Position numbers and translations under genes: made by a program
UHGV virus genome: UHGV-1550212
From: a virus
Length of the DNA stretch: 64,000 nt
Direction: 5' to 3' (one strand)
The notes under the pieces: generated by a model
What the model was told of the DNA's origin: nothing
Seen by the model: the letters and a program-made list of their open reading frames with translations, nothing else
Databases searched by the model: none
In this document: positions 1 through 63,217 of the stretch, in pieces
How positions within the stretch are numbered: position 1 is the stretch's first letter
Layout of the letters: the number at the start of each line of letters is the position of its first letter

Positions 1-1918
1 CAATTGATAGCACTTGTTTGCTATCTTTTGCTACTCTTGTCATAACTGCAAATATCGTAGCAAGCACACCAATCCCAAGTGCAGCCTTGCCCATGTCTTC
101 CCACTCAACAATTCGCCAAGCAAATATGCCAAGTGCAAGTGCACCAACCGCTGCAGCCATAGCAAGCACGCCTACACCAAGCTTTTGCATATCGCCATCT
201 TTGCCAGCAAGACGATTTGCACCAGCCATTGCCAATGCAAGTGTAGTAATTGTTATTGCAGGCGCAAATGCATATGTGTAATCAGGTATGAGTTCATGCC
301 AAGCCCAAATTGACAATGCAAGCACCGCTATTGAACCTGCAATCATCATCATTTGAGCACCGATGCCACCCTTAAGATTTGAGCCCTCTGTCTGCATTTT
401 GCTGAATGCATCAGCATTGCCAGATAGCTTCATACCAAGGCCTGCACCTGCAGATGATATGCCATTTGCAAAGCCGATTGCAAGACCCAATGCAACAATG
501 ACACCAAAGATTAAGCCAACAGATTCCCAGCTTGCTTCCATCAATTCACCTGCAGCAACCACTGCAAGCACAAACAGAGCAATTGAGCCTGATAGCATCA
601 GCATTTCTTTGCCCACTGCATTCTGCTGTCCTTTCTTGCCGCCTGAACCAAACAGCGATTCACCAGACAATGCTTTGCCAAGCACCCATATTGCTCCACT
701 GACAGCAAGCAAAGCAACTGAACCCATAACAACACCACTCCATGATACATTGCTAAATAGCATCATTGACAATGCGACCATGCTAAGCGCGCCTGCAATC
801 ATCATGACATTCTTTGCACCAGCTGATGCATCTTTGTCAGTGATTTTGCCAATTGCCCAATATGCTGCAATGAATGTCAATGTGCCAAGCGTGAACATTC
901 CAAGAGCTTCAAATGTCACAAGTTGACCAAATGACCATATTGTAAGACCCACAAGAGCAATTGCTGCAGCAGCTTTCATGACAACCTCTGTCGTTCTATC
1001 AAGAGATGCCACAAGTGATTCAACTTGGCTGACCATGTCAGCCACTGCAGTCATTGACTCTTTATGAGATTTCAGAGTTTCAGCAGCTTTCAAATACGAA
1101 TCGACAAGCTTATTCAAGGCAGCCTCAAATCTTGGAGCAGCCTTTTCAAGCCTGTCGACAATCAAATCGATAGCTTCAAGACCGCTTTCAAGCTGCAATC
1201 GTTTGACAGGCGACATATTTGTCAAAGAGTCAATGATTGTTGCAAAAGCAGTAGCTATCGTGCCCATTTTTGGGTCAATGTTGGGCGCATTGCTTGCATT
1301 GGCCTTGCTGTTTGCGATTGAGTCTTTTTCTTGACGTTCTGCAATGACGTCTGCAAATGTTGTCAGGTCATCAAGTTTTGATGACATCAATGCAAAGATG
1401 TTGCGTTGATTTTCCTCGATAACTTCAAGATAGACTCTTACAAGGTCACAATGTTGTGTAAATTCAGTATGTTGTGATTCAACATGCTCTGCAATCACAT
1501 CAAGCAAAACAGAAGCATCTGATATGTTTGTTGCAGCAGCTTTGTTTTCAATATGCTCTGCAATGATTTCAAGCAATGCGTTTGTGTCAGACAATAATGC
1601 AGATACTGATGTTGCTGAAGATGATTCGTCTGTTTGCAGTTCAGATATGATTTGAGCAAGACCTGCAAACATATTTGTTTCTGCACTCGAATCTTTTTCT
1701 TTCCATGATTGATACAAAACTGCACCAACAGTTGAGCACAATGACGCAACAATAGTGTCGTTGCCAACAATTGACATGAAAGTGTTTTCAAGCTTTGTCA
1801 GCTCATCATCACTGACATCAGTCGAAGATGCTGACGACGTGTCAGCATCTTCGAACTCTTGCCAGTTTGTTGGCTTGTCGCCTGTAGAATCGTAGACGTT
1901 TGTTTTGTCTTCAGCCAT
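1..1918 (-). CDS. Large hydrophobic Ala/Gly/Leu-rich protein; only the N-terminal ~639 codons are in the window (gene runs past position 1). Tape-measure-like or multi-pass membrane protein
   Basis: Minus-strand ATG at 1918-1916 (MAEDKTNVYDSTG...). I hand-translated both ends in the same frame (last in-window residues ...AVMTRVAKDSKQVLSI); the middle is inferred open because the ORF track lists no minus ORF here. Plus-strand ORFs 14-926 are its codon-aligned antisense. Confidence 0.45.
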   Translation of the reverse strand, partial: MAEDKTNVYDSTGDKPTNWQEFEDADTSSASSTDVSDDELTKLENTFMSIVGNDTIVASLCSTVGAVLYQSWKEKDSSAETNMFAGLAQIISELQTDESSSATSVSALLSDTNALLEIIAEHIENKAAATNISDASVLLDVIAEHVESQHTEFTQHCDLVRVYLEVIEENQRNIFALMSSKLDDLTTFADVIAERQEKDSIANSKANASNAPNIDPKMGTIATAFATIIDSLTNMSPVKRLQLESGLEAIDLIVDRLEKAAPRFEAALNKLVDSYLKAAETLKSHKESMTAVADMVSQVESLVASLDRTTEVVMKAAAAIALVGLTIWSFGQLVTFEALGMFTLGTLTFIAAYWAIGKITDKDASAGAKNVMMIAGALSMVALSMMLFSNVSWSGVVMGSVALLAVSGAIWVLGKALSGESLFGSGGKKGQQNAVGKEMLMLSGSIALFVLAVVAAGELMEASWESVGLIFGVIVALGLAIGFANGISSAGAGLGMKLSGNADAFSKMQTEGSNLKGGIGAQMMMIAGSIAVLALSIWAWHELIPDYTYAFAPAITITTLALAMAGANRLAGKDGDMQKLGVGVLAMAAAVGALALGIFAWRIVEWEDMGKAALGIGVLATIFAVMTRVAKDSKQVLSI

Positions 1919-1927
1919 AGTGTATCA

Positions 1928-2182
1928 TCAGAACTTTGGCAGTTCAAAATTATTGTTGAACTTTGGCATTGGCAGACTTGTCGGCATCATTGACTTTGCT
2001 TTGCGCATATATGCATCTTGTTGAGCCTTGATGCTTTTATGAGTACCGCTTTGTGAATCAGCATCGCCTTTTCGAGCTTCTTCTTCAGTTTTGATAAGCT
2101 CAAGAACATCATCCAGCAGCCATTGATATTCATAGTATGGCAATGCGTCCAATTCAGAAAACTGAAGAGGACATTTTTGCAT
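1928..2182 (-). CDS. Small hypothetical protein (84 aa from internal Met MQKCPLQFSELD...)
   Basis: ORF-track entry 1928..2326 trimmed to the Met at 2182 to remove a 128-nt out-of-frame overlap with the upstream gene ending at 2199. Confidence 0.3.
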   Translation of the reverse strand: MQKCPLQFSELDALPYYEYQWLLDDVLELIKTEEEARKGDADSQSGTHKSIKAQQDAYMRKAKSMMPTSLPMPKFNNNFELPKF

Positions 2183-2198
2183 GATGTATATGCGATTC

Positions 2199-3284
2199 TT
2201 ACAAAAGTTCCGATTCGAGATTTTGAACTGGTTGAAAAATCTGCTTGATTCCCTCTGGAAATCGAAACGGGGCTTCACCCTCCATGTGACACTTCGGGCA
2301 AGTGAACTTGATATTGTTAGATGCAAGAATCATGCACTTAGACAGAATCTTCAGCTTAAGCGGCAATTCTTTGAATGCATCCATTGCTTGGAACGACTGA
2401 CAAATTTGCTCAGCTTTCTTGACATTAAGACCTCGCCAATCAGGTGTAAGCCACTGAGCTGCAAGAATGTATGTCTTTGCGTTCATCAATGTGTCTTTGT
2501 CAAGTGTTCGCATGTACTCTGCAAAAACTTTGCCAACGCCGATTGTCGATGGCTTGAGTACAAGTTCGCCATACGAACGAGTTTGAACTCGATAGCAGCC
2601 GGTTTCAGAATCAATGTATTTGTCCATTGATTCATCGGGCTCATCCCAAGTCATATTGTCAGCAGTTAAGTCAAGCTTAAAATTATGCTTGCAAGTGCCT
2701 GATGAAATTTCCAGCGTAATCGGGTTTGTCAGCTCAGAGTTCTCAGGGAATGTGAGGTCGTGAATCAACATTATCAGGTACCACTTGTCGTGTTCGTATA
2801 TATCATCAACTGACCAATGATTCATGCCAGACTTGCTGACGCATCGAACGCATACCTTAACAATGTCGTTCAAATATGTTGCTGCTTCAGCTGGATTTGC
2901 ATTGTCATCAAGATTCGACCAGTGACGAATTTCACCTGCTCGACATGCTCGATAGATAATTTGCAAATCACTTGGGTACAGTCGACCTTGCTTAGCAAGC
3001 TTCGTCATGTCAACATTGAACCAGCCAGTGTCTGTAACTTCTGATTGACGTGCTCTTTCTGCAATACGCTCTTGAGCTACTTCAGTTGCAGCATCAATTG
3101 CGCTATCATTGACTCTTGTAGCTGCTTCAGCTTCTTCTACTACAGATGCAAGCGGATTGTTTCTACCCGCATTCTCACCGCCATCTGCTGGAATGACGAG
3201 ACGTTTCTTTTCTTGTGGCATATTGTAATGTATTTGAATGGTTTTGAATATGTATTTGAGATGTGCACACATTGAAAATATCAC
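2199..3284 (-). CDS. Hypothetical protein (361-aa ORF; true start may be the internal MPQEKKR)
   Basis: Long minus-strand ORF tightly packed between neighbours; C-terminal CPKC pair; no motif I can place. Confidence 0.5.
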   Translation of the reverse strand: MIFSMCAHLKYIFKTIQIHYNMPQEKKRLVIPADGGENAGRNNPLASVVEEAEAATRVNDSAIDAATEVAQERIAERARQSEVTDTGWFNVDMTKLAKQGRLYPSDLQIIYRACRAGEIRHWSNLDDNANPAEAATYLNDIVKVCVRCVSKSGMNHWSVDDIYEHDKWYLIMLIHDLTFPENSELTNPITLEISSGTCKHNFKLDLTADNMTWDEPDESMDKYIDSETGCYRVQTRSYGELVLKPSTIGVGKVFAEYMRTLDKDTLMNAKTYILAAQWLTPDWRGLNVKKAEQICQSFQAMDAFKELPLKLKILSKCMILASNNIKFTCPKCHMEGEAPFRFPEGIKQIFQPVQNLESELL

Positions 3285-3289
3285 ACAAA

Positions 3290-4585
3290 CTATTGTTTGC
3301 GTTGTAATGTCAGTAGTCCACAGTCATATACAGGTAAAAATCCTGCAGCATTGTAGTCTTCTGCATGTGATATGTCATTGTCTATAAAATGCTCACCAGT
3401 TCGCATATTATGCCAATGACATTGTATAACATTGCTTACTAATTTATAGTCATCTACATATTTTGTAGGGTCTTCTTTTGACAAGTCTATTGTAATAACG
3501 TCGGCAGTTTTCAATTGTTCTGTGTCATCGATGATTGACTTTAGCAATGCGACAATTGTATCAGCGTCATCCCAATCCCAAATTGTGACGCATCGATAGC
3601 CTTGCGACATTGCTTTGCAACATTTGTCTGCATGACTATTTGCATGTCTATGCCAATTTGCTGCAGAGCGGCCTGTCATATACTCAAAGCTATACGCACT
3701 ATTATGCGTAAACGTTGGATTGATTTCAATTGCTATGTTCTCATAGCGTAAGTCATATGTAAATGATTCTATTTGCGGTTGCTCAAACTCAAATTGAACG
3801 TTAAGCGATTCTAACAAGTATCGTTGCCACCATTGATTTTGCTTAGATATGATGTGACCTTGCGCAAGTTTACAATGTGTAGTCATGCAATAATATGGCA
3901 CACCATAACGCATCATATTTGTACGTACAACTGCTTGTGTGCGTCGTTTTAAGTCACCGCCCCACTTGTTGCCATACCGTTCAAGCTTTGTTTGCGTTGC
4001 CAGTTGTATATTCACACATCCATTTGCTTTGCCATATCGTTCAAGTTTGACTTGCGTAATTTTGTCCATAGGCCCAAATGCATTACCAAATTGTGCAATC
4101 TTTGTAGCTTTCATTTTGTCAATATTGCCAACACCTTTGCTGCCAAATCGAACAAGCTTAGTGTCGCCAACTTTGCATTTAACATCATGCAATTGTGATA
4201 TGAATTCTACACCGTATTTGAGCAAGTTATTGATGCGACCATTATAACGCTGTTTAATGATGCCATGCGATGTTTTGCGTGGTGCATAACGAACAAATGG
4301 TGTATTAGCAAGTTCAGCATCTCGCAATTCTTCAAGTTCTTTTATTCGAGCTGCATGTTCAGATGCGTTATCATATTGCAACGCGCCAGCATGACGTTCA
4401 TATGGCAATCTTCCATGCTTACGTATGAAAGCAATTTTGTTTGCATATTGCACACGTATCTTACTATGTGTAGATACTCTTGCGCTTAATTTTGCATATG
4501 GCGTTTCTGCAATCAATTTATCACGTTCAGCTTCAAGTTCTTTTATTCGAGCTTCAAGAGCATCACCAGTTAGTCGTTCAGCCAT
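3290..4585 (-). CDS. Homing-endonuclease-like protein, paralog 1 of 5 (coiled-coil N-module, (K/E)RYGxxxG repeats, Vsr/DUF559-like C-terminal nuclease domain)
   Basis: Start placed at MAERLTGDALEARIKELEAERDK by alignment with the paralog at 16845-17876. Repeats LVRFGSKGVGN / IAQFGNAFGP / LERYGKANG / LERYGNKWGG; C-terminal IEINPTFTHN ... GYRCVTIWDWDD ... GFLPVYDCG. The N-module is duplicated in this copy. Confidence 0.55.
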   Translation of the reverse strand: MAERLTGDALEARIKELEAERDKLIAETPYAKLSARVSTHSKIRVQYANKIAFIRKHGRLPYERHAGALQYDNASEHAARIKELEELRDAELANTPFVRYAPRKTSHGIIKQRYNGRINNLLKYGVEFISQLHDVKCKVGDTKLVRFGSKGVGNIDKMKATKIAQFGNAFGPMDKITQVKLERYGKANGCVNIQLATQTKLERYGNKWGGDLKRRTQAVVRTNMMRYGVPYYCMTTHCKLAQGHIISKQNQWWQRYLLESLNVQFEFEQPQIESFTYDLRYENIAIEINPTFTHNSAYSFEYMTGRSAANWHRHANSHADKCCKAMSQGYRCVTIWDWDDADTIVALLKSIIDDTEQLKTADVITIDLSKEDPTKYVDDYKLVSNVIQCHWHNMRTGEHFIDNDISHAEDYNAAGFLPVYDCGLLTLQRKQ

Positions 4586-4652
4586 TGTGCATGAATGTTC
4601 AATATGTAAATTCACTATATGTACATATAACACGAATATTCAAGTTAGATGC

Positions 4653-6644
4653 ATGGCTGAAGTCAAGAATCAAGTGTTTAATCCAGTAGCACAATTCAAA
4701 TCTGCTGAAGAAAAAGAAGCTGCGAAAGTTATATGGTGCAGTGAATCAGTCGCAATGGCATATGATGCAGTTGACCAAGGCTTGCCACTTAGAGCAAATC
4801 CGTGGTTCTTTGGCAATATTGCACTGCGTAAGCCCGGATTGCTATACAGATACACTGACATAGAATTGCGTGAATGGCTTAGATGCAAGTATGACATATT
4901 ATATTTTGCTGACACATGGTGTCAGATTTTAACTCCAGATGGCACAAGAAAGCATTTTAATTTGAGACCATATCAACGCAAAATGCTGCGTGCATATCAA
5001 CGACAAAAGTATACGATAGTTCTTACTGGGCGACAAGTAGGCAAAACGGTCGTTACATCAGTATTTCTCGCTTGGGCAGTCATTTTCAATCGTGAGCTTA
5101 ACATAGCAGTACTTGGCGACCGCTTGGCAACATCAAGTGAAAACCTGAACAAAACAAAAGACATCATAAACAATCTGCCGTTCTTTATGAAGCCTGGTGT
5201 GTTTGTTTGGAATGGCGGAATGGTCGCATTTGACAATGGTTGCAAAATTATCACAGGTACTGCTCAAAAGTCATCACTTGTCGGTAAGACAATTCACATC
5301 TTATATCTTGATGAGCTCGCAATTCCACCTGCTCAGCAATCAAAGACTCTTGTAGATTATGCATTGCCAACAATTGCGTCATTGCCAACTGGCAAAGTTA
5401 TCGTAACATCTACGCCATCTGGTGATAATGTGTTCAAGACTTTGTGGCTTGGTGCAATTAACAAAACAAATGGCTTCTTTCCAATTCAAGTAAACTGGTG
5501 GGATATTCCTGGCCGTGATGAAAAGTGGAAAGCTGAGCAAATCGCAATTCTTGGTGAAGATGCTTTCAATGAGCAATACAACTGCGTGTTCTTGTCAGGT
5601 GCAACGTCAATTTTCAATTCAAGAGCAATTGATGATATTGCAAGACGACAGCAAAAGTATGAATTTGTTGCTGATGAGCGTCTTGAATCACTACTCAGAT
5701 TCTTCATTGCTGATTCAGATGTCGGCACTGAACCCGAGCCGCACTCATTTATGACTTGGCGTGCAGATATTGACCCAGCAACACTCAAAAATGAAACATG
5801 TATCATCAATATTGACATTGCTGAAGGTTTATCTGGCGACTTTTCTGTCATACATGTGCATCGTATAGTTGACATTACAAAAGATGTTGAACTTGAACTT
5901 GATGCAAGCAATCTGTATGATATGTTTGACGATGACAAAAAATCATTGTTTGCAAAAGCAGTTGAAATGCAACGTCAAATGTCAGCAACACAAGCTCAAG
6001 ATGATGACGATGATGACGATGACGACTGGTTTGGCGCAGACGATGATGTCGCTCAAGGCGTTGATGCATATCAAGATTATGCGAATGCTGCAGTAGAAGA
6101 GATTGGCTTATGGCGTTCAAATGTGACATCAATCAAAGTCATGGCTCTGTATTTGCAGTTCTTAATGACGTATGTGTTTGATGCAAACAAAACAAAGATT
6201 ATCTATGAACGCAACAAATATGGTGGAGAGTTTCGTTCATATTGTTTGTCTGAACGTGCACGCAATATTGCAATTGATGAAGAGAGCTTCGTAAGCTTCC
6301 AACGAACTCTTGGTTCAGAACAACTTGCACCAGGCTGTTCAATTACGCCTGGCACCAAACCAGTGTACGTAAGACAGCTCAAAGACCTTATTGAAACTGG
6401 CAAGATTCTTGAAAACAATGCAGATACGCAAAGAGAGCTTACATATTTTGGCGGTGTCAAAGGCAAGAATGGTCACGTGTCATATCAGGCGTCACCTGGC
6501 TTCCATGATGACATTGCAATGACTCTTGTATCTCTTGCAGCATTTATGGACACTCGATGCAATGACTGGCTTGAACTGCTTGATGTGTTCTACAATGGCA
6601 GCAGTCAAACAAGTTCTGATGATGACGATGATGACTGGATTTGA
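4653..6644 (+). CDS. terL: Terminase large subunit (T4 gp17-like ATPase-nuclease)
   Basis: Walker A LTGRQVGKTVVTSVFLAWAV, Walker B HILYLDELA, C-terminal nuclease-domain GFHDDIAMTLVSLAAF, all closely resembling T4 gp17 as I recall it. Start moved to ATG 4653 (MAEVKNQ), divergent from the gene starting at 4585. Contains in-frame poly-Asp tracts at 6000-6026 and 6618-6635. Confidence 0.9.
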   Translation: MAEVKNQVFNPVAQFKSAEEKEAAKVIWCSESVAMAYDAVDQGLPLRANPWFFGNIALRKPGLLYRYTDIELREWLRCKYDILYFADTWCQILTPDGTRKHFNLRPYQRKMLRAYQRQKYTIVLTGRQVGKTVVTSVFLAWAVIFNRELNIAVLGDRLATSSENLNKTKDIINNLPFFMKPGVFVWNGGMVAFDNGCKIITGTAQKSSLVGKTIHILYLDELAIPPAQQSKTLVDYALPTIASLPTGKVIVTSTPSGDNVFKTLWLGAINKTNGFFPIQVNWWDIPGRDEKWKAEQIAILGEDAFNEQYNCVFLSGATSIFNSRAIDDIARRQQKYEFVADERLESLLRFFIADSDVGTEPEPHSFMTWRADIDPATLKNETCIINIDIAEGLSGDFSVIHVHRIVDITKDVELELDASNLYDMFDDDKKSLFAKAVEMQRQMSATQAQDDDDDDDDDWFGADDDVAQGVDAYQDYANAAVEEIGLWRSNVTSIKVMALYLQFLMTYVFDANKTKIIYERNKYGGEFRSYCLSERARNIAIDEESFVSFQRTLGSEQLAPGCSITPGTKPVYVRQLKDLIETGKILENNADTQRELTYFGGVKGKNGHVSYQASPGFHDDIAMTLVSLAAFMDTRCNDWLELLDVFYNGSSQTSSDDDDDDWI

Positions 6645-6653
6645 TTTGTGACA

Positions 6654-6707
6654 CATCATCACAAAACAAGCCAGCAGAATTGTCTGCTGGCTTGTTTTGT
6701 GATGATG
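6654..6707. terminator. Perfect 24-bp-stem hairpin (loop aattgt) between convergent terminase and DHFR genes; likely bidirectional terminator
   Basis: catcatcacaaaacaagccagcag / aattgt / ctgctggcttgttttgtgatgatg; begins 10 nt after the terminase stop. Confidence 0.6.
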
Positions 6708-6712
6708 TGCTG

Positions 6713-7216
6713 TCATCGTTTTCGATGGAAGACTTTGAATTTGTATCGTAACGTTCTGTCATTATCTGTGCATGTGTATAGTGCAGACTCAGATTTTTTA
6801 GTCCACATTCGCCAATTGACTGCAGGAAATCGAACGTCGCCTTCAGCATAATTGTCAATCATCGTCAAGTACATTCTGTCTGCATAAATCATTGCTTCTT
6901 CAAACAACTTAGAACCGCCGATGATAAACATGTTAGACGCAAATGCAGACTTGCAATATGCTATTGCATTGGCTAGCGTGCTAAATACGAAATAGTCGCT
7001 TGTTGGCTGCAATGTAGAGCTTATAACAATGTTAATTCTGTCGGGCAAGGGCTTGCAATTCATCGACTCAAAAGTCTTACGACCCATGATGACAATGTGA
7101 TTCTTTGTGAGTTTCTTGAAGTGCTGCAAGTCATGTGGAATATGCCAGGGCAAATCACCATTGCGACCTATGACATTGTTATTTGATACTGCTGCTATGA
7201 TATTGATGTATTGCAT
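6713..7216 (-). CDS. frd: Dihydrofolate reductase
   Basis: N-terminal IAAVSNNNVIGRNGDLPWHIPHDLQHFKKLTKNHIVIMGRKTFES is the canonical DHFR signature; 167 aa. Confidence 0.9.
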   Translation of the reverse strand: MQYINIIAAVSNNNVIGRNGDLPWHIPHDLQHFKKLTKNHIVIMGRKTFESMNCKPLPDRINIVISSTLQPTSDYFVFSTLANAIAYCKSAFASNMFIIGGSKLFEEAMIYADRMYLTMIDNYAEGDVRFPAVNWRMWTKKSESALYTCTDNDRTLRYKFKVFHRKR

Positions 7217-7231
7217 TGTTGATGAAGTTGT

Positions 7232-7537
7232 TTATAATGAGTCAGACACTACAGATGCATATTGCAAGACCTGTTTGCGAATATCACTGCCAATCAGTCG
7301 TTCATACTGCAGACGCAGTTTTGTAACTGTCATATTATCTGGCAGTTCTTTGATTTTGATGAACACACCAGCTCTATGACCTTTATCGATGTAGCCGCAT
7401 TTTTCACACATATTGCGCAAATTGTCGACGTATGACTCTTTGTCATTGACTGCAGATAGCATTTGCTGTCTGCTAAATGAATCGCCAATTGCAATTGATG
7501 CTATGAATTGTTTGAATGAATCCCAAGCAGTCATCAC
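7232..7537 (-). CDS. Hypothetical protein (101 aa)
   Basis: ORF with 4-nt start/stop overlap with the upstream gene. Confidence 0.45.
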   Translation of the reverse strand: MMTAWDSFKQFIASIAIGDSFSRQQMLSAVNDKESYVDNLRNMCEKCGYIDKGHRAGVFIKIKELPDNMTVTKLRLQYERLIGSDIRKQVLQYASVVSDSL

Positions 7538-7989
7538 ATATTTGACTTATAAGTTTCACAGCGTTTCCAATCTGTTGCAGACTTCAAGCCCTTCAAGTAT
7601 TCTACATACATTGGGTGCTCCCATGCAGGGTCATCAGTCACAGCAACATAGCCTTTGCTATGCTTATCTTTGTCAATAAGCATCTCTGCGTATTTTGGTG
7701 CAAGCAGTCGTTTGTTTGCAGCCCAAGCAAAATGACATTTGACAAAGTGCCGCGTAATTCTTGTGTATGCTGCTTTGACAGACTTTAGCATATCAGGGTC
7801 TGCAATGACATCTGACAAATTCTGTGGTGCTGCAGCAATGAAAACTGCTTCACAGTCTTTGTGCTTTGCCGCAATTTGCTGCAGCAAGTCTTCATGTGAA
7901 TTGAGATGCAGAATCGTCGAACAGATGACCACGATATCTGTTGCAGGTTCGATTCGCTTTGCTTGTTCTTTAAGAGATGGTTGTTCCAT
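7534..7989 (-). CDS. Hypothetical protein (151 aa)
   Basis: ORF in operon-like packing; no confident motif. Confidence 0.5.
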   Translation of the reverse strand: MEQPSLKEQAKRIEPATDIVVICSTILHLNSHEDLLQQIAAKHKDCEAVFIAAAPQNLSDVIADPDMLKSVKAAYTRITRHFVKCHFAWAANKRLLAPKYAEMLIDKDKHSKGYVAVTDDPAWEHPMYVEYLKGLKSATDWKRCETYKSNM

Positions 7990-7995
7990 GTTGTG

Positions 7996-8256
7996 TCAGA
8001 TTTTGATATGTCGTAGCAAAATTTTATGCAAATTCAACAATGATTGCGCTGCATATGCTGTATTTGGTTGAAGCTCTTTGCAGTTGTCGCATTTCAATGA
8101 CAGTTCAGTTATTTGAGCATCTGTGTCAATGTCAATTGCAGTTTGGCAAACTACACATTGCCATTTAAGTGTATGTGTATGCAAGTTGTTTACGAACAAC
8201 GTAGAGCCAAACTTGTCTTGCCAGTCTTCTGCGCATTTTGGATGAAACATTGTCAA
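7996..8256 (-). CDS. Small Cys-rich (zinc-ribbon-like) protein
   Basis: CxxC ... CxxC spacing (CVVCQ ... CDNC); 86 aa. Confidence 0.4.
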   Translation of the reverse strand: MTMFHPKCAEDWQDKFGSTLFVNNLHTHTLKWQCVVCQTAIDIDTDAQITELSLKCDNCKELQPNTAYAAQSLLNLHKILLRHIKI

Positions 8257-9254
8257 TGAGCCCAGTTAAGCCATACGTCATCAATTGATTGCGTAGTATA
8301 TTCACAATCATACAAAAAATCTACAAGAGCATCATAATTGCGTCTGCCCCATAATTTGTGCTTCAGACTGCCGATTTCTTCGTCTTTCTTGTAATTGTTG
8401 TAGATTCGTTCAAGCATTGCTGAAGAACCTGCTTTTGTGTCATATTCTGCCTCAAACAAACAGCCACAACTTGCTTTCTTTACAATTATGCGGTCATACA
8501 TTGACACTACTGCTCTCAAAATGCTCTTTGACTGCAATCGTAGCGTGTCAAGTTTATTGCATTGAGACTCCCATTTTTTGTACAACGTGTTGAATGATGG
8601 ATTGTCAAGTAGCTTGTCTGCAATTGCATACGCAAATGACATTGCATGCCAATCATCTGTTCTGAAGTCCTCTGTGTTATGCTTGTTGTAATAGGCGCCA
8701 GTCGGTGCACAGCCAATAAACGCTTCAAGCTGTCCAGCATCATTTCGCAATATACGCAATGAATGCTTGTTAAAGAATGACACCCATATGCGATTGTGCG
8801 CAACTATCACAGAATACTTGTTTTCGCATTTTGCAGCAGCATCACTTATTGAACGACAATCAATTTGCTTGCAAATTGATGTTATGAATGCTGCAAACTC
8901 TTCATGCTTCTTGAGCTTGTTTTGCGTGACGTCATACAGATGTAGCAGTCCATTGACAACAGAGTCAAGCTTAGCTTCGTCAGATTCAAAACTGCCAAAT
9001 GTTTCAAAGACTCGCATCTCTTTGTCAACAAGTGTTTCTACAATTGCATCAATATCTTTGCTAAGTAGTGTTTTGGGTTCTAACGTTGCATGCATAAATG
9101 TCAATTGAAGCAATGCATTTGCAGTTTGCTCAGACAACACATCATTTGCACGTGCAATGTCGATTGCAGCTTTAAGTTCTGTTCGTTTGACTTCAAAATA
9201 TCGTTGCAGCTGTAGTTTAAGTTGCTGAGAGTAGACGTTATTTGGTCTGAGCAT
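8253..9254 (-). CDS. Hypothetical protein (333 aa)
   Basis: Long ORF; promoter-like motif 9294-9320 lies ~40 nt upstream of its start. Confidence 0.55.
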   Translation of the reverse strand: MLRPNNVYSQQLKLQLQRYFEVKRTELKAAIDIARANDVLSEQTANALLQLTFMHATLEPKTLLSKDIDAIVETLVDKEMRVFETFGSFESDEAKLDSVVNGLLHLYDVTQNKLKKHEEFAAFITSICKQIDCRSISDAAAKCENKYSVIVAHNRIWVSFFNKHSLRILRNDAGQLEAFIGCAPTGAYYNKHNTEDFRTDDWHAMSFAYAIADKLLDNPSFNTLYKKWESQCNKLDTLRLQSKSILRAVVSMYDRIIVKKASCGCLFEAEYDTKAGSSAMLERIYNNYKKDEEIGSLKHKLWGRRNYDALVDFLYDCEYTTQSIDDVWLNWAH

Positions 9255-15401: not shown

Positions 15402-15797
15402 TCATCGGTTCTTTGAAAATGAAACTTGTGTTGATTGCTGTGGTCGTATATCGACAAACACTGAATCTACTGCGTCAAACTTAAGTGTCGCAAGTGAATC
15501 AATTGTCTGTCTTGCTTTTTGCAACTTGCGTGCTTTGATGCCTGATACTGTTGCAGACTTTTCAAGCAGATATGCATCACGAGGCGTCCAGTAACGAGCT
15601 TGCCAACGCATATGCATAGAGTCAACAATCAGATTTTCTGCTGCAGCGTCAATAATTGCCGCAGTTGATTGCTGAGTTGCATCAAGTCGTTGCTGCAACA
15701 CTGCTAATTGTTTTGTGTGCTGTTGCTGATGTTTGAATACTATGCTGATTGCTCCAAATAAGAGAAACCATGCAATAAACTGCAAAAATGACTTCAT
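15402..15797 (-). CDS. Hypothetical membrane-anchored protein (N-terminal hydrophobic helix)
   Basis: MKSFLQFIAWFLLFGAISIVF then Gln-rich coiled region; directly downstream of the clamp-loader gene. Confidence 0.45.
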   Translation of the reverse strand: MKSFLQFIAWFLLFGAISIVFKHQQQHTKQLAVLQQRLDATQQSTAAIIDAAAENLIVDSMHMRWQARYWTPRDAYLLEKSATVSGIKARKLQKARQTIDSLATLKFDAVDSVFVDIRPQQSTQVSFSKNR

Positions 15798-16801
15798 GAT
15801 TGCTGCACGAATTTTGAGAGCTCGAATGATAATGCGAGCATTGTTATGAATTGGTCAATTGATTGTTTCGACTCTACACCGTATTTGTGAGCTGCAATGA
15901 CAATGTCTCCAAGTCGTGCAACAAAACCGGGTGTGTTCTTTGAGAGCTTTGCATAGCACCAATTTGCAAAGTCAGTTGAGAGAGCATTGATGACTTCGGT
16001 TTCACGACCTTTGTATTGTGACAGTGTTTTGTAAAATTCACGTGGGTCTTTGCATGCAACAATGAAATCATACAGTTCTTCAAACTTTGCTGACATGCCC
16101 TTTGTGACATGCTCAAGCGTTATATGACGCTCGCCTTGATTGAAGACAAAGTAGCAAATGTTCAGAATTTTGCGGAAGTCTGGGTAGTTATCTTGAATTA
16201 GCTTGATGAGCGCTTCTTTTTCAATTGTGCATTCATTTTCCTTCAAGATATTGTAGACGCGAACCATGCATTTCTTCATCAACTGTTCTGCGACATCATC
16301 AGAAAAGTCGAATGATAGCATTTTGAGACGAGATTGAGCAATTGATGCATCAATGCGGTCTGGATAGTTGCAAGTTGCAATGAAAAACGCGATGCCTGCA
16401 AACTCTTCAATGGTGCCTCTTAAAGCCATCTGACTTTGCACAGATAAAAAATCCATTTCATCAAGCAGCACAACCTTTACGCCACTTGACGACAATGACA
16501 TATGCTGACAGAATTCTGAAATTGTGTTGCGAACTGTGTCAATGCCAGAATTCTTTGAGCAGTTAATTTGCAAAATTGAACGCCTATCAGTCCACTTCAA
16601 TGCCAATGCTCTTGCTGCGGTTGTTTTTCCACTTCCTGGTGCTCCTGCGAACAAATAATTTTGCGGCTGACCATTAAATGCTGCAGCATAATCATCAGGC
16701 ACAATTAACTCTTCGACTTTTGTTGGCCTGTAGCGTTCTAACCAAGTTTTATCTTTAAGGGATGCCATTTGTTGTTTGTTGTGATATGTGATATGATGCA
16801 A
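15794..16801 (-). CDS. Sliding-clamp loader subunit (T4 gp44 / RFC-like AAA+ ATPase)
   Basis: WLERYRPTKVEEL, P-loop AGAPGSGKTTAARALA, Walker B VVLLDEMDFLS, and NYPDFRKILN matching T4 gp44 NFPDFRKTIG. Confidence 0.85.
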   Translation of the reverse strand: MHHITYHNKQQMASLKDKTWLERYRPTKVEELIVPDDYAAAFNGQPQNYLFAGAPGSGKTTAARALALKWTDRRSILQINCSKNSGIDTVRNTISEFCQHMSLSSSGVKVVLLDEMDFLSVQSQMALRGTIEEFAGIAFFIATCNYPDRIDASIAQSRLKMLSFDFSDDVAEQLMKKCMVRVYNILKENECTIEKEALIKLIQDNYPDFRKILNICYFVFNQGERHITLEHVTKGMSAKFEELYDFIVACKDPREFYKTLSQYKGRETEVINALSTDFANWCYAKLSKNTPGFVARLGDIVIAAHKYGVESKQSIDQFITMLALSFELSKFVQQS

Positions 16802-16825: not shown

Positions 16826-16856
16826 ATATGATACAACAAACGTGTCAATTTTGCAC
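16826..16856 (-). promoter_or_regulatory. Promoter-like motif (sense GTGCAAAATTGACACGTTTGTTGTATCATA)
   Basis: Recurrent motif ~25 nt upstream of the clamp-loader start. Confidence 0.45.
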
Positions 16857-17876
16857 AGCATGACCGCAATCGTACACAGGCAAAAAGCCTGCGTCAAGCA
16901 TCTCTTGTGTATCTTGTCCACAATCTTTAACATATTGTCGTGTTTTGAAATTATGCCAATGCTTATGAATTGTTGACTTGTCATCTGACAGCTGTGGATT
17001 GAGCGCGAAGTCAGTCGAGTCTACTGGTTCACCTGCAAGATGCTTTCTAATGGCATCAATGACTTCATTGTCATCCATCCATTCGAATATTGTAATGCAA
17101 GTGTAGCCATGCTTGAGAGCAAGCTGAGTTTTGTTGAAGTGATAGTCGAATGCAAGTGGATGATTATGCGTTGATTTGCCCATTGCATATGCAAATCCAT
17201 ATGCTGCATTGTGTGAAAACGTTGGGTTAATTTCAATGAGCAATTTGCAATGTTCATTGCTGTAGTTCAAATCAAATGAAAATCTATGCAATGAAATTTC
17301 ATCATAGCCACAATTGATGCAAAGTTCTTGCTGCAGTTTATCATGCCAATATTTGTTTATCGCTGAAATTGGGCGACCATTTGCATCTCTGCATCTCTTT
17401 GTCATGCAAAACCATGGCACACCATATCGTTGCAGCGTTGTTGCATTGATTTTTTGTTTAGGCCCAAATGCATTGCCATACAAGCGTTGTTTTGTTTCAA
17501 GCATTTTGTTAATGTTGCTTAGAGAGTCACCCCACTTTGCTCGTTTTGTTTCAATTGATTTTGCGACGTTGCCCCATGCATTGCCGTAGCGCTCTAAATT
17601 TGTTTGTCGTTGTTTAGCGACATTGCCCATGCCATTGCCATATTTTGCACGTTTTGATGCAACCATTTTCGCAGCAACATCTTTGCATTGATTGCTATGT
17701 TCTACACCATATTTGTGCAAACATGCTATTTTTCGATTGTACTTTGTTTTAATTGCGCCATGCGATGTTTTACGTGGCGCATATCTCACAAATGGCGTTT
17801 CTGCAAGCAATTTGTCTCTTTCCTCTTCAAGTTCTTTTATGCGAGCTTCAAGAGCTTCTCCTGTCAATTTTTCCAT
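16845..17876 (-). CDS. Homing-endonuclease-like protein, paralog 2 of 5
   Basis: MEKLTGEALEARIKELEEERDKLLAETPFVRYAPRKTSHG; repeats KYGNGMGN / ERYGNAWGN / LYGNAFGP / LQRYGVPW; C-terminal LLIEINPTFSHN ... GYTCITIFEWMDD ... GFLPVYDCG. Confidence 0.6.
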   Translation of the reverse strand: MEKLTGEALEARIKELEEERDKLLAETPFVRYAPRKTSHGAIKTKYNRKIACLHKYGVEHSNQCKDVAAKMVASKRAKYGNGMGNVAKQRQTNLERYGNAWGNVAKSIETKRAKWGDSLSNINKMLETKQRLYGNAFGPKQKINATTLQRYGVPWFCMTKRCRDANGRPISAINKYWHDKLQQELCINCGYDEISLHRFSFDLNYSNEHCKLLIEINPTFSHNAAYGFAYAMGKSTHNHPLAFDYHFNKTQLALKHGYTCITIFEWMDDNEVIDAIRKHLAGEPVDSTDFALNPQLSDDKSTIHKHWHNFKTRQYVKDCGQDTQEMLDAGFLPVYDCGHAVQN

Positions 17877-57482: not shown

Positions 57483-58565
57483 TCATTGTTGTTTATGCCA
57501 GCCATATGATGCCTGACCAGCATCATACACTTCTACGAAGCCATGGTCGTACATAAAATCTTCATTACGAGTGCCCTTGCCCCCATTAGTGCCAAGAATA
57601 CGGTCTGCGCCATGCATAAGCAGCATATTATTTGTGACATGTTGCTTTGTCAGCATATTGAACCAGTGTTTGCTATATGACAAGCCAAGACCATCAAAGC
57701 CCAGCTTTGTGTACACACCACCGTCAAACTTGCTTAAATCACAATATGATAACACAGATTCAGGGTCATATGTCTTGATAAAGTGCTTAAAGATTCGTTC
57801 AGCACCACCAACAACTTTGGTTGCTGCACAAAGACGTAGCAATTCATATTGATAGCGCTTATTGTATCGTGGACGACCAAATGTCATAAGTTGATGAATG
57901 ACATAACCACCAAGCAACTCAAGTGGATGACCTTCAATCAACGCAAGATTGATAAAATTGCCTGAGCACTTGCCTTGCAAATGATGTTCAATCAAAAATT
58001 GATTTGCAGTATACTTGTCAATTTCAACAACTTTAAGCTTGCGAGCATATACAATCTTTGATTTGTCTACGATTTGATGCTTGATGTGATTGATAACTTT
58101 CTTGGCGTCATCCCAGTCCCACACATGAATGCAATGAAAGCCTGCTGATTTGGCGATGTCTGTTTTCTTTGCATGAATATCACAAGGCAAATGCGAATCT
58201 TTTGCATCATGCATAAACAGATGTTCAAATGAATGTGTGCTGTTATGTGAAAATGCAGGATTGATGTTAATGACAATATTGTCATGTCGAAAATCGAAGA
58301 CTTCATCGCCAATGACAAAGTTGCGCTCAAAATTTATACCGACATGTTTGAGTAACACTTGATGCCACACATCTTTATAGGCTGATTCAAGCTTGCTTAG
58401 CTCATCACAGTTTGCAATGTTTTTGTAACGTTGAATAGCAGCATCAAAGTCAAGATTGACTTCAGCGTAGTCTGCATTTTTATCGTAGTGAAATTTTGAG
58501 CTCATGTGTATAATTTTGTATGAGATTATTGTACAACATGCAAATGCATGTTGCATTTGATGCAA
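57483..58565 (-). CDS. Homing-endonuclease-like protein, paralog 3 of 5 (nuclease-like domain N-terminal, different downstream module)
   Basis: DNIVININPAFSHN ... GFHCIHVWDWDD near the N-terminus; C-terminal GFVEVYDAG shared with the other paralogs; middle region with ANQFLIEHHLQG. Confidence 0.55.
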   Translation of the reverse strand: MHQMQHAFACCTIISYKIIHMSSKFHYDKNADYAEVNLDFDAAIQRYKNIANCDELSKLESAYKDVWHQVLLKHVGINFERNFVIGDEVFDFRHDNIVININPAFSHNSTHSFEHLFMHDAKDSHLPCDIHAKKTDIAKSAGFHCIHVWDWDDAKKVINHIKHQIVDKSKIVYARKLKVVEIDKYTANQFLIEHHLQGKCSGNFINLALIEGHPLELLGGYVIHQLMTFGRPRYNKRYQYELLRLCAATKVVGGAERIFKHFIKTYDPESVLSYCDLSKFDGGVYTKLGFDGLGLSYSKHWFNMLTKQHVTNNMLLMHGADRILGTNGGKGTRNEDFMYDHGFVEVYDAGQASYGWHKQQ

Positions 58566-58612: not shown

Positions 58613-59674
58613 TTACTTTGTATTGCTACGCGTCATTGTTAAATGACCGCAATCATACACATCAACTTCTGTTTTGCCAAGCATGCATGTATGACAATTT
58701 ATTTTGAAATCTGCTGCAGCGTAATCAGGATAGTTTAGTGGAGATTCTTTTGACAAATCAATTTCAATTGTGTCAGTAGTTTTAAGCTGTTCAGTACCTG
58801 CAATGATATCTGCAATAAGATTGATAACTTCTTCTTGTGAATCCCAATCAAACACAGTTATGCAACGATAGCCTACATCAAGTGCAAGTTTTGTTTTATT
58901 GTAATGGTATTGCGCACCAATAACATTGTTGTCTTTTGCTCGACCAGTTAAATATGCAAAACTAACAGTGCAGTTGTGCGTAACTGTTGGACAAATTTCT
59001 ATAAGTAACTTTGCAGGCTCATACTGCAAATCATATGTTTGATTATTGATGTTAAACTCGTACTGTGTATCAATTGCCAACTGTCGTAATAACGCATCAT
59101 GCCACATCATATTACATTTAGAAATTGTTTTGGATGACAATCTGCATTGAGGCAATTGACATGGCCAATCTACGCCGTACATTTGTTGTGTTGTTTGACG
59201 CATTTTGTTAACATCACCAAAATGATTGCCATATCGATGCTCTTTGGTTTTAAGCGACTGCTCAATATTGACATTGCCTACACAACCATAACGTTCAAGT
59301 TTTGTTGCAGCAGTTTTGCTAACATCACCATGTCCATTACCAAATTTGGCGACTTTAGTTGCAAGTATTTTATGACTTGGGCCAAATGCATTGCCATACA
59401 ATTCTTGTTTAGTCGCAAGCATTTTGTCGATATTACAACCAGCGCCATAAGTGTTATGCATAGTTTGCATACGCTGTCGAATAAATTTTGGCACAGATAA
59501 AGGACTTTCTACACCATATTTGCGTAAGCAACTGATTTTGCATGCGTACTTTTGCTTGATGACAGAATGTGCATTTCGACGTCCTATGTAAGTATTTTCT
59601 GATGTAGCAGCAAGCTCTGCATCTCTAAGAACTTCAAGTGCAGCAATTCGTGCTTCAATTTCTTCAGATGTCAT
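58613..59674 (-). CDS. Homing-endonuclease-like protein, paralog 4 of 5
   Basis: MTSEEIEARIAALEVLRDAELAAT; repeats LERYGCVGN / HRYGNHFGD / QMYGVDWP; LLIEICPTVTHN ... GYRCITVFDWD ... VDVYDCGH. Confidence 0.6.
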   Translation of the reverse strand: MTSEEIEARIAALEVLRDAELAATSENTYIGRRNAHSVIKQKYACKISCLRKYGVESPLSVPKFIRQRMQTMHNTYGAGCNIDKMLATKQELYGNAFGPSHKILATKVAKFGNGHGDVSKTAATKLERYGCVGNVNIEQSLKTKEHRYGNHFGDVNKMRQTTQQMYGVDWPCQLPQCRLSSKTISKCNMMWHDALLRQLAIDTQYEFNINNQTYDLQYEPAKLLIEICPTVTHNCTVSFAYLTGRAKDNNVIGAQYHYNKTKLALDVGYRCITVFDWDSQEEVINLIADIIAGTEQLKTTDTIEIDLSKESPLNYPDYAAADFKINCHTCMLGKTEVDVYDCGHLTMTRSNTK

Positions 59675-59694
59675 TTTTTAATAGCATATTGATA

Positions 59695-59723
59695 ATTGTA
59701 CAACATACAAATGCGTTTTGCAT
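59695..59723 (-). promoter_or_regulatory. Promoter-like motif (sense TGCAAAACGCATTTGTATGTTGTACAATT)
   Basis: 21 nt upstream of ATG 59674. Confidence 0.45.
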
Positions 59724-60021: not shown

Positions 60022-61737
60022 TCAAATCCAGCCGTAGTCGCTGTGGATAGCGAAGGTGAGATAAGCCAACTCGGGATACATACCCGTCTCCGCGAGAGCG
60101 TAATCCGACTCAATCAGCAACTTAGGTGCTGCTGTACCCTCAGCGGTTAATTCCACACTTGATGCAAGGTCATATGGCATGAATACACATCCCTGGTTGA
60201 CATTCTCTACGTCAACGCCGTCAGCAGTCTTGTTCGTACGAAGAACGAGAACAGTGTTATCGTTCAGCGGCTGCTTAGGATTGCAATAGATTTTAATGCC
60301 AGCCAAGTCACCTGCATAATACAGGTTCTTGTTGTCCTGTACCAGCGTATTGTCAAGAGCTGCAACAAAGTTCTTCTGAGCCTTAATTGCAACCAAGGCA
60401 ATCGTATTGACCACAGCAGCATCACCAGCACCGAAACGCGACAGGTTGCCAATGATTGTCGAAGCAGCCAGGATACGAGTTGCGATACGAGCCTGACGGG
60501 TAATCTGGTTCTCAGCCGAGCTGTTCGATTCAGCGTTAGGAACCATGCCGAACTCAGCCGTGCGGTCTACACCCATCTTGTCAACGAATGCAGGAGCCTG
60601 GAATTCCGAGAATGCCTTGGCAGTCGAACCAGCGTAGCCAATGTACAAGTTCAGGTTGTAGCCCTGAGCAGCCAACAGCTGAGCATGTGTCGTAACACCA
60701 AGTGCACGCATGCGCTTCAGACCATTGTCGTTGATTGACTGCGTGATTTCATTCTGCATTGCATTCTTGATGATTGCAACTGCATCCAAACCGCGAGCAC
60801 GGAGGTCCTTAACCTGGCGACGAGTCAGAGCACCCCAAGTCTGGTACGTCTTAACTTCGATAGCCTTTGAGAAGGTGCGGAGCTCCAGCATGTTCGGGTT
60901 GCCAGCCTCAGCCTCAGAACGAGACATTGGATTGCCGTCAAGGTCATCCATTGCAGCGAAGCCGTGGATGTGTTCGTCACCAGCCGAAACCAGGTCGAAC
61001 ATAACCTCAGTCATGCCAGTCAGCATGTCAGTTACAGCACCTGTAGCGTCAACCGAGTAGATTTTCGATGCAGCCATTGCAACATCAGCCAACGACTTGT
61101 CAGGAGCAACAGTCATTGCGCCACCAGCGCCAACGGTATATACGCCTTCATTGCGAACTACGAGGTAGCCTGCAACACGCGATACCTGTACGAACGTTAC
61201 CTTGGCAGCAAGCTCACCAGCAGCTGAACCGCCGATGTACAGAACTTGACCCTTCTTGAGGCCATGAACCATTGTCTGCGAAGCAACATTGTACAACTCC
61301 TTCCACTTGATGAGGAAGTAGCGAGGACCCTTGGCTGCGTTCAACTTGCCACCACCATACACGTAGTCTACATAGTCCAGCTGAACCAGCGGGCTGTATA
61401 CAGGAATGGCCGGGAGCAGGTCGAACAGAATCGTGTTGGCTGCGATGTTCATGTTCAGAGCCAGAACATTGGCAGCTACATCGATTGAACCACGCTTACG
61501 CGACGGGTCATGGAACTGTGCTTGCGTACCTGGGTCAGCAGGGAAAGCGACCGGACCTACGCCATTGAGATTCTGCGAATACGTCGACTCAAACGACTCG
61601 TTCATATACTGAACGTTCTGAGCGATTGATGCGAGCAGATACTTCTTAGCGGGCGAAAGCTTGGAGTCAAACGACTCATCAAGAACAGGGCCCCACTTTT
61701 TCAGCAATGCATCAATCTGTGTACGTTTTGCGTTCAT
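60022..61737 (-). CDS. Major capsid protein (T4 gp23-like)
   Basis: N-terminus TQIDALLKKWGPVLDE versus T4 gp23 TKAELLNKWKPLLEGE; internal QVKDLRARGLDA versus AQDLRAVHGMDA; codon usage noticeably more GC-rich at third positions than neighbours. Confidence 0.8.
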   Translation of the reverse strand: MNAKRTQIDALLKKWGPVLDESFDSKLSPAKKYLLASIAQNVQYMNESFESTYSQNLNGVGPVAFPADPGTQAQFHDPSRKRGSIDVAANVLALNMNIAANTILFDLLPAIPVYSPLVQLDYVDYVYGGGKLNAAKGPRYFLIKWKELYNVASQTMVHGLKKGQVLYIGGSAAGELAAKVTFVQVSRVAGYLVVRNEGVYTVGAGGAMTVAPDKSLADVAMAASKIYSVDATGAVTDMLTGMTEVMFDLVSAGDEHIHGFAAMDDLDGNPMSRSEAEAGNPNMLELRTFSKAIEVKTYQTWGALTRRQVKDLRARGLDAVAIIKNAMQNEITQSINDNGLKRMRALGVTTHAQLLAAQGYNLNLYIGYAGSTAKAFSEFQAPAFVDKMGVDRTAEFGMVPNAESNSSAENQITRQARIATRILAASTIIGNLSRFGAGDAAVVNTIALVAIKAQKNFVAALDNTLVQDNKNLYYAGDLAGIKIYCNPKQPLNDNTVLVLRTNKTADGVDVENVNQGCVFMPYDLASSVELTAEGTAAPKLLIESDYALAETGMYPELAYLTFAIHSDYGWI

Positions 61738-61825: not shown

Positions 61826-63217
61826 TCATTTTTCAATCTTTTTGAGCAATGCATGACCACAATCATAGACTTCGACGAAGCCTGACGCAATCATTTGTTG
61901 CCTATCAAACCCATTGTCAAGTAGATGTTCCCATGTCTTTGTATTGTGCCAATGCAATTGAATTGATGATTTATCTGTACTAAGCTGCGGATTTTTTGAA
62001 AAGTCTGCACAGTCAATTTTGTCACCGTTAAGATGCTTACGAATGCATTCAATGACAGTGTCGTGGTCATCCCAGTCCCATATTGTTATGCATACATAGC
62101 CATGTTGTAATGCAATTTGTGTCTTGTCAAAATGACTATCATGTCTCTTTGGCCTATTACGCTTTGTGCGCTTAGTAATATATGCATATGAGTATGTTGA
62201 GTTATGCGAAAATGTTGGATTCACTTCAATCAACAATTTGCAATGTTCATTTTCATAATGCAAGTCATATGAAAAGCCAAGTAGCTTAACATCGTCATAA
62301 CTGCAATCAATGTTAAGCTCTTGTTGCAACTTATCATGCCAAAATTGATTTGGCTTAGATATTATGTTGCCTTGACTGTTTATGCAGTTAGAAGTCATAC
62401 ATGACCATGGCACGCCATAACGCTCAATGTTTGTTTTGTTTGCACTTGCTTGAATTTTTGACAATGGGCCCCATGGATGACCATACTTTGCACGCTTGAC
62501 ATCTGCACCACGTTTAGCAACTTCACGATAATCGCCATAACGCTCTTTTCTTGTAGCAAGCATTTTTGCAATATTGCCCGCGCCACGAGAGCCATATCTA
62601 AGCTCTTTAGTCTTTTGAGCTTTGGCGTAATCACCACAAAATGCATTGCCATATCGAGCAATTTTTGTTGCTTTCATTTTTTCAATGTTGCCTGCACCAG
62701 CATTGCCATAACGTTCAAGTTTTGTTTGCTTGGACAATTCAACATTGCCAAATTTGTTGCCATAACGCACTAATTTTGTTTCTTGTGAACGTTGACGTAT
62801 TTCTTGCACTTGTGCACAGTATTCTACGCCATAGCGTTTTAACATTGTTATTCGTTGATTATATGCACGTTTAATAGGTGCATGCGATGTTCGTTTTGGC
62901 CCATATTTAACAAACTCAGTAGATGCAAGTAATTCATCACGCTCACGTTCAAGTTCTGCAATTCGTTGTTGTATATGGACATCATACACAGGCTGCTCAG
63001 AAATGTCATCAATAGCTGTCGTTTCTAATTTAGCAAGTTTGCGTTTAAGAGCTTTTGTTGTTTGCGTGCAGCTCATTTTTATCAATGCATGTGCATGTCT
63101 GCCACAGTCAAGTACAATGTTAGGCTCATTTGCAAGGCGTTCATCACGTTTACATTCTGCAGCATGTATTGCATCAATAAGTTGTCGTCTCTTTACATTA
63201 TATTCGTCTTGTGTCAT
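61826..63217 (-). CDS. Homing-endonuclease-like protein, paralog 5 of 5
   Basis: IAELERERDELLASTEFVKYGPKRTSHAPIK; repeats VRYGNKFGN / ERYGNAGAGN / IARYGNAFCGD / LRYGSRGAGN / ERYGDY / AKYGHPWGP / ERYGVPW; LLIEVNPTFSHN ... GYVCITIWDWDD ... GFVEVYDCGH. Confidence 0.6.
   Translation of the reverse strand: MTQDEYNVKRRQLIDAIHAAECKRDERLANEPNIVLDCGRHAHALIKMSCTQTTKALKRKLAKLETTAIDDISEQPVYDVHIQQRIAELERERDELLASTEFVKYGPKRTSHAPIKRAYNQRITMLKRYGVEYCAQVQEIRQRSQETKLVRYGNKFGNVELSKQTKLERYGNAGAGNIEKMKATKIARYGNAFCGDYAKAQKTKELRYGSRGAGNIAKMLATRKERYGDYREVAKRGADVKRAKYGHPWGPLSKIQASANKTNIERYGVPWSCMTSNCINSQGNIISKPNQFWHDKLQQELNIDCSYDDVKLLGFSYDLHYENEHCKLLIEVNPTFSHNSTYSYAYITKRTKRNRPKRHDSHFDKTQIALQHGYVCITIWDWDDHDTVIECIRKHLNGDKIDCADFSKNPQLSTDKSSIQLHWHNTKTWEHLLDNGFDRQQMIASGFVEVYDCGHALLKKIEK

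Follow-up and report, generated by a model that had tools for sequence, protein, structure and literature searches.

A Hef-like putative homing-endonuclease gene with an old doubled N-terminal module in an allele-swapping slot beside the terminase gene of virus genome UHGV-1550212

Introduction

What kind of gene lies back to back with the large terminase gene (TerL) of virus genome UHGV-1550212, and is the duplication inside it a recent event? The gene, an open reading frame (ORF) that we call p1, was analysed within one 64,000-nucleotide (nt) stretch of this genome (the window), in which an earlier note, made from the letters of the DNA alone, had described it as homing-endonuclease-like and had proposed a "recent internal duplication" of its N-terminal module. 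Our analysis indicates that p1 belongs to the free-standing homing-endonuclease genes of the Hef-like / EDxHD kind, that its doubled module is old, and that it occupies a slot at which alleles are swapped among closely related phages; we consider this reading, in which we infer cleavage and homing, to be correct with a probability of about 0.7.

I-Bth0305I (PDB 3R3P) is the prototype of the EDxHD (Vsr-like) homing-endonuclease family, in which Hef-type enzymes have also been placed (Taylor et al. 2011, PMC3239194). While I-Bth0305I is encoded in an intron of recA, p1 stands free between genes, and where I-Bth0305I has NUMOD and helix-turn-helix (HTH) motifs, p1 has a different module followed by DUF7487 repeats, as well as an extra C-terminal domain. 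NUMOD and HTH motifs are an accessory, non-catalytic feature of EDxHD / Vsr-like homing endonucleases. Hef and Hef-like proteins of T4-related, Campylobacter and Vibrio phages (phrog_3339) are homologous to the p1 family and likewise free-standing, and, as in the p1 family, one genome encodes many of them (10-11 in Campylobacter phages); by contrast, p1 and three of its paralogs are shorter by ~150 C-terminal residues and begin with a rare module. In 2005, Sandegren et al. reportedly found that the locus of the Hef gene in T4-related phages is occupied in relatives by a different endonuclease gene. With regard to organization, the T5orf172-type genes of ICP1 share with p1 a beads-on-a-string series of repeated DNA-binding domains (predicted in p1), and with the p1 family in-frame repeat-mediated deletions, domain swapping and positions beside or bracketing essential genes, although their T5orf172 nuclease and their CapR/Zn-finger binding domains are both unrelated to those of p1 (Barth, Dunham and Seed 2023, PMC10055350).

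Replacement of one such gene by another at a locus, beads-on-a-string domains, repeat-mediated deletion and domain swapping are already known for phage homing endonucleases (PMC10055350, PMC3239194), and we classify p1 as a variant in domain architecture within a known homing-endonuclease family, located in a hypervariable slot that is well resolved. As such, p1 would be an ordinary kind of phage selfish element, and its doubled module alone a minor architectural point; more notable than the module is the strong difference between the alleles found at one spot in closely related phages. The locus offers a clean natural example of diversification, in which near-identical gut phages hold five unalignable alleles with sharp common breakpoints.

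Results and Discussion

Fold and sequence relate p1 to Hef-like enzymes

The earlier description of p1 as homing-endonuclease-like proved correct, based on fold, sequence homology and partly mapped conserved residues. In an AlphaFold model of p1 (125 homologs in the alignment; mean predicted local distance difference test score, pLDDT, 87.7), short helices run along amino acids (aa) 133-261 and an alpha/beta domain spans aa 279-429; comparison of folds showed the catalytic domain to be Vsr-like. This comparison alone identified the nuclease; PDB sequence searches, made with the p1 protein as well as with a profile of 125 sequences, yielded no meaningful match, and the identity between p1 and I-Bth0305I is only 16-18%. 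Fold matches of p1 in BFVD were to phage "endonuclease-like" and "homing endonuclease" proteins. Across the 125-homolog alignment, D278, P290 and H294 are invariant and E287, N289, N295, H318, K321 and D337 nearly so, and p1 retains every one of these core residues; the D278-N289-H294 spacing parallels that of D196/N208/H213 in I-Bth0305I (PMC3239194). At the sequence level, p1 is 27-42% identical to its paralogs in the window, among which that at 57483-58505, with a full C-terminal domain, matched phrog_3339 ("homing endonuclease") with an E-value of 3.8e-42 (1.3e-96 for homolog P0043) and, by tblastn, annotated Hef-like homing endonucleases of Campylobacter and Vibrio phages. An NCBIfam search with p1 gave no match, and annotated Hef-like genes were reached only through the paralog with the full C-terminal domain. 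Taken together, the fold, the partly mapped residues and the homology support p1 as a probable member of the Hef-like / EDxHD group.

The domain order of p1 is two N-terminal modules, a disordered linker, five DUF7487-type repeats, the Vsr-like core and a shortened C-terminal domain (Table 1). No NUMOD or HTH motif was matched in p1, which has the N-terminal module (named here for its ARIKELE motif) and the DUF7487 repeats instead; distant homologs have an HTH (HTH_28) or a C2H2 finger ahead of their DUF7487 repeats, which is in keeping with a role of the N-terminal region in binding DNA. The Pfam DUF7487 model covers only the repeat array of p1, with a match at aa 173-239 that passes the gathering cutoff (29.5 bits; cutoff 27), while the scores of more distant homologs reach 210 bits; no mention of DUF7487 was found in the literature searched. 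The repeat number varies, in that ortholog P0002 is without one 21-aa DUF7487-type repeat, a change that maps to a pair of 29-nt direct repeats, 60 nt apart, in the repeat region of p1 (3969-3997 and 4029-4057); the difference is consistent with a repeat-mediated in-frame deletion or gain.

The two N-terminal modules are homologous, and old

The two consecutive copies of an N-terminal module described in the earlier note, each of ~55 aa, are present. Both peptides quoted there occur in p1, ARIKELEAERDKLIAETPY at aa 12-30 and ARIKELEELRDAELANTPFVRYAPRKTSHG at aa 79-108, and aa 12-58 align with aa 79-125 without a gap at a BLOSUM62 local score of 91, a value reached by 0 of 2000 shuffled controls (23.5 +/- 4.4, maximum 46). 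Both copies were matched by a hidden Markov model (HMM) built on the N-terminal modules of family members (Table 1); the block of copy 1 in the AlphaFold model has pLDDT values of mostly 88-97, and the last helix of module 2, together with KYGVE, doubles as the first DUF7487-type repeat. The segments are thus clearly homologous, and not the unrelated stretches that the earlier note had allowed for.

The same note had taken the duplication to be recent, and a recent tandem duplication within p1 would account for this homology as well as for a 26-nt direct repeat (96% identical, with an identical 22-nt core) whose copies lie 201 nt, or exactly 67 codons, apart. This repeat is, however, the sole DNA-level remnant of the duplication, and its core, for which the window has three sites (0 expected), recurs with one mismatch in the paralog at 16845-17876, which makes it a family-conserved tract and no marker of recency. 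Over 47 aligned codons the modules agree in 40% of residues and 50% of bases; once the seven ARIKELE codons are removed, agreement drops to 30% of residues and 41% of bases, and of 40 third positions 11 agree, a share close to that of random sequences. Alignment against the paralogs shows module 2 to be far nearer to the single module of 16845-17876, 13 kb away (74% aa identity), than to module 1, whose own nearest relative is the module of P0006 (61%), and a neighbour-joining tree did not group the two copies together. Both modules are also already present in orthologs P0001 (96% aa identity) and P0002 (93% in the aa alignment, 88% by BLASTP), on contigs with 93-95% DNA identity to the window. 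The copies are homologous but old, with saturated silent sites and each nearer to modules of other family members, and a recent origin, the one part of the earlier claim that fell, has hardly any probability left.

The module is rare, with matches at E <= 0.001 in 22 of 1.84 billion cluster representatives. About 20 close relatives have one module; P0005 (which corresponds to the paralog at 61826-63217), P0022 and P0154 have two, and P0142, judged by eye, apparently has three. Two matches of the module search, P0146 and P0153, were discarded as unrelated repeat proteins.

Closely related phages carry five classes of allele in the slot

Related contigs were obtained by exact-protein look-ups, plus one from a scan of viral contigs; a scan of viral contigs for the 22-nt tract yielded just one contig, and a scan of JGI metagenome contigs with TerL just a 1.7-kb fragment and two distant relatives. 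The resulting set comprised nine related contigs with readable slots and eleven sampled contigs with TerL at least 93% identical. Across the related contigs the proteins at both boundaries of the slot are conserved (93-100% identity for TerL, 94-100% for the 340-aa gene), while the intervening gene comes in five allele classes: A (window, L001, L002), B (L015, L016, L027, L028 and a shortened copy in L003), C (L017, L018), D (L019) and E (L029, encoding P0003). Identity between classes A to D is 37-49%, except for 65% between C and D; class E, which lies outside this matrix, is by BLASTP 40% identical to p1 and 66% to D.

Sharp breakpoints are common to the alleles, homology to three other allele types being lost at one and the same position. 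Nucleotide homology to the window stops at 4495, after codon 30 of p1, in L003, L015/L016 and L017/L018, and resumes at 3246, 3258 or 3418 according to the allele. In A and B, the 67-nt block that ends at this breakpoint is identical, with an abrupt loss of similarity after it, despite the fact that the A and B spacers differ. Other alleles show the same patchwork; P0003 and P0004 are 97-100% identical over about 190 aa and 13-57% across most of the remainder, and P0004 and P0006 differ in their N-terminal halves while their C-terminal halves are mostly 63-97% identical. The slot alleles are mosaics. With regard to the shortened copy, the B-type allele of L003 (IMGVR_UViG_3300045988_149023, 175.5 kb; L003 1-1900) ends after about 204 aa, and the first 1219 nt of this contig, including the gene for a 327-aa putative lipoprotein, have no match in the window or in L015, which reflects either a true rearrangement or a chimera that arose in assembly at a repeated gene.

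Mosaicism offers another origin for the doubled module, namely a fusion in which a family member with its own module recombined in frame behind the module of the resident allele, and which would be compatible with p1 being a homing endonuclease. Slot alleles C and B have the modules nearest to module 1 (61% and 55%), whereas the nearest to module 2 is that of a paralog elsewhere in the genome. Codons 1-30 are almost the same as in B and C, after which similarity drops abruptly; mosaic alleles and exchange between slots are documented, and the linker between the modules is predicted to be disordered. By contrast, aa 31-58 resemble no sampled allele in DNA, so that a donor cannot be named; P0005, P0022, P0154 and P0142 show that tandem arrays exist in older lineages too, and the common first 90 nt could stem from later homogenisation. 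Either an old tandem copy or such a fusion could explain the doubled module; we regard the fusion as a possibility of some substance, though one with the odds against it.

The position of p1 next to TerL and the occupation of the slot in every sampled close relative might also suggest a non-selfish role as an accessory nuclease for packaging, for which the HNH endonucleases beside terminase genes in cos phages (PMC3592412) are a general precedent. One would not expect a protein that works with a 93-100% conserved TerL to vary down to 37-49% identity, however, and neither the truncated copy in L003, nor the presence of four paralogs beside unrelated genes, nor a fold that is Vsr-like and not HNH agrees with such a role. 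Relatives of TerL at 56-60% identity, furthermore, are found without p1. A packaging function is thus very improbable.

TerL haplotypes, proposed mechanism and its weighing

Three TerL haplotypes were distinguished, with identities of 72-78% over nt 1-300, 85-93% over nt 301-700 and 94-99% over nt 1301-1990 (comparisons involving L019, which has a one-codon indel, were left out); 57% of codons differ within codons 1-100, as against about 20% within codons 201-400. Divergence therefore climbs steadily toward the slot (4653-5350), while on the opposite side of the slot (window 1-3246) identity stays at 96% right up to the junction. Allele A occurs on two TerL 5' haplotypes, and slot alleles reassort against TerL haplotypes; in comparison with L001, for example, the gene itself is 92-98% identical over window 4600-3600 and the adjoining 5' end of TerL 73-82%. 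This gradient makes the 5' end of TerL, and its first 300 nt in particular, the best candidate region in which the target site may lie.

We propose that the modules and DUF7487 repeats would form an extended modular arm that binds a long stretch of DNA, and that the Vsr-like domain would cut a rival genome near the slot in mixed infections, the likeliest place being the hypervariable ~300 nt at the start of TerL, after which recombinational repair from the carrier genome would copy the allele. The proposal draws on established knowledge of I-Bth0305I and of phage homing endonucleases that are free-standing. Numbers of modules and repeats may shift by recombination among family members, via conserved 5' and 3' ends and short tracts; the doubled module could be one outcome of such shuffling and would lengthen or retarget the footprint. 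If the modules and repeats do read DNA modularly, the natural one-, two- and three-module variants would form a series for the scaling of footprint and specificity. A bolder version would treat the conserved ends (the 67-nt block and the last ~40 codons) as homology arms of cassette exchange among alleles and paralogs at fixed slots beside essential genes, with each nuclease targeting the TerL 5' haplotype of its rival and with one to three ARIKELE modules plus DUF7487 repeats forming a modular array for DNA reading of a kind not described before, with target length set by copy number; we consider it speculative and doubtful as a whole.

Several observations weigh against p1 as a mobile endonuclease. 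The match of p1 itself to phrog_3339 is weak (E 2.5e-7), and the EDxHD active-site residues could be mapped in part, with the equivalent of D222, the fifth residue, left over. Neither the N-terminal module nor the DUF7487 repeats matched known DNA-binding folds or families, and the steep gradient in TerL could have causes besides target-site evolution. No empty slot was seen, all 11 of the 11 contigs with TerL at least 93% identical being occupied, and the TerL relatives at 56-60% identity that are without the gene differ in gene order (i.e., are not collinear); mobility is thus deduced from allele swapping and not from presence or absence. Finally, most family members have an insertion of ~150 residues in the C-terminal domain, and its absence from p1 means that activity could be altered.

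This last feature, together with the weak phrog_3339 score of p1 alone and the absence of any match when p1 was searched by tblastn against 50,697 phage records (INPHARED), would also fit a decayed or domesticated family member that no longer homes and serves as a DNA-binding protein, or as a nuclease for phage exclusion or anti-host defence. In p1, however, all invariant core residues are intact and the shortened C-terminus is predicted at pLDDT > 90; the short form recurs in about 20 diverged relatives with open reading frames, and allele swapping at the slot continues. We thus judge decay or domestication to be unlikely, and retain a free-standing homing-endonuclease gene as the preferred reading.

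Table 1. Coordinates of p1, its parts and neighbouring features in the window
Feature	Position	Strand	Details
ORF p1	3290..4585	-	431 aa, ATG at 4585, stop 3290-3292; TerL-adjacent slot, allele class A
Module copy 1 (aa 8-61)	4403..4564	-	Helix, beta-hairpin, helix; HMM E 3e-28; predicted helices 7-27, 39-58
Linker (aa 62-75)	4361..4402	-	Predicted disordered; pLDDT < 50 at aa 66-70
Module copy 2 (aa 76-129)	4199..4360	-	HMM E 3e-31; predicted helices 74-94, 106-124
26-nt direct repeat, copy 1	4531..4556	-	22-nt core encodes ARIKELE
26-nt direct repeat, copy 2	4330..4355	-	201 nt from copy 1
Five short helical DUF7487-type repeats (aa 130-235)	3881..4198	-	Motifs ...TKxxRYGxxxG...; presumed DNA-binding array
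Vsr-like nuclease core (aa 262-352)	3530..3802	-	D278, E287, N289, P290, H294, N295, H318, K321, D337
Shortened C-terminal domain (aa 353-431)	3293..3529	-	pLDDT > 90
67-nt block (codons 9-30)	4495..4561	-	Identical in A and B; homology ends at 3' edge
Replaced cassette	3247..4494		Codon 31 of p1 to 43 nt beyond stop; no nucleotide similarity to allele B contigs
Spacer, divergent p1 / TerL	4586..4652		67 bp; without above-chance promoter signal; not conserved in L019
TerL gene	4653..6644	+	Candidate target-site region at 5' end
340-aa gene, other boundary of slot	2199..3221	-	94-100% aa identity among contigs
Paralogs	61826-63217, 16845-17876, 58613-59674, 57483-58505	-	Found by tblastn

Neighbouring genes and other slots

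The plus-strand TerL gene begins with ATG 4653 and encodes a large terminase of T4 type (Terminase_6N, E 8e-22); with p1 starting at 4585, this leaves the 67-bp divergent spacer that the earlier note had given. A GTG at 4633 is a possible alternative start of p1, while the ATG was chosen in all gene calls of related contigs. A scan for sigma-70 promoters returned 6 sites against 5.9 expected, i.e., nothing beyond chance; inspection of the spacer by eye showed no Bacteroidota-type TAnnTTTG motif, and window 1-9000 contains no Rfam family. An RNA element as the explanation for the conserved 5' block was dropped, given this last result and a lack of unusual RNA structure (z +1.5).

In the 64-kb window just two plus-strand ORFs of at least 180 aa are plausibly coding, and TerL is one of them; its protein contains a run of nine aspartates and has the acidic end DDDDDDWI. 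Between the convergent TerL (stop 6644) and DHFR (6713-7216) genes lies an inverted repeat of 27 bp without mismatches, with a loop of 4 nt (6652-6709) and conserved in related contigs, that looks like a bidirectional terminator.

The count of four other paralogs given previously was confirmed by tblastn, with all of them on the minus strand. All five family members adjoin essential genes, i.e., TerL, a gp44-like clamp loader gene and, on both sides, a Gp23-like capsid gene. The paralog at 16845-17876 abuts the clamp loader gene (15794-16801); 61826-63217 lies upstream of the Gp23-like major capsid gene (60022-61737), and 58613-59674 and 57483-58505 lie in tandem downstream of it. At the 16845-17876 slot, comparison with IMG/VR contig L021 shows conserved ends and a replaced middle, as at the p1 slot, with DNA alignable just over the first ~42 and last ~42 codons; window 16972-17750 corresponds to L021 12216-13330, a 343-aa allele facing a 455-aa P0007-like allele.

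A 24-nt motif, GCATTTGYATGTTGTACAATWATC, occurs on the minus strand at 58524-58547 and 59691-59714, only upstream of the two tandem paralogs (0 occurrences expected), and may be a promoter or operator; its position indicates that the true start of the paralog at 57483 is ATG 58505 and not TTG 58565.
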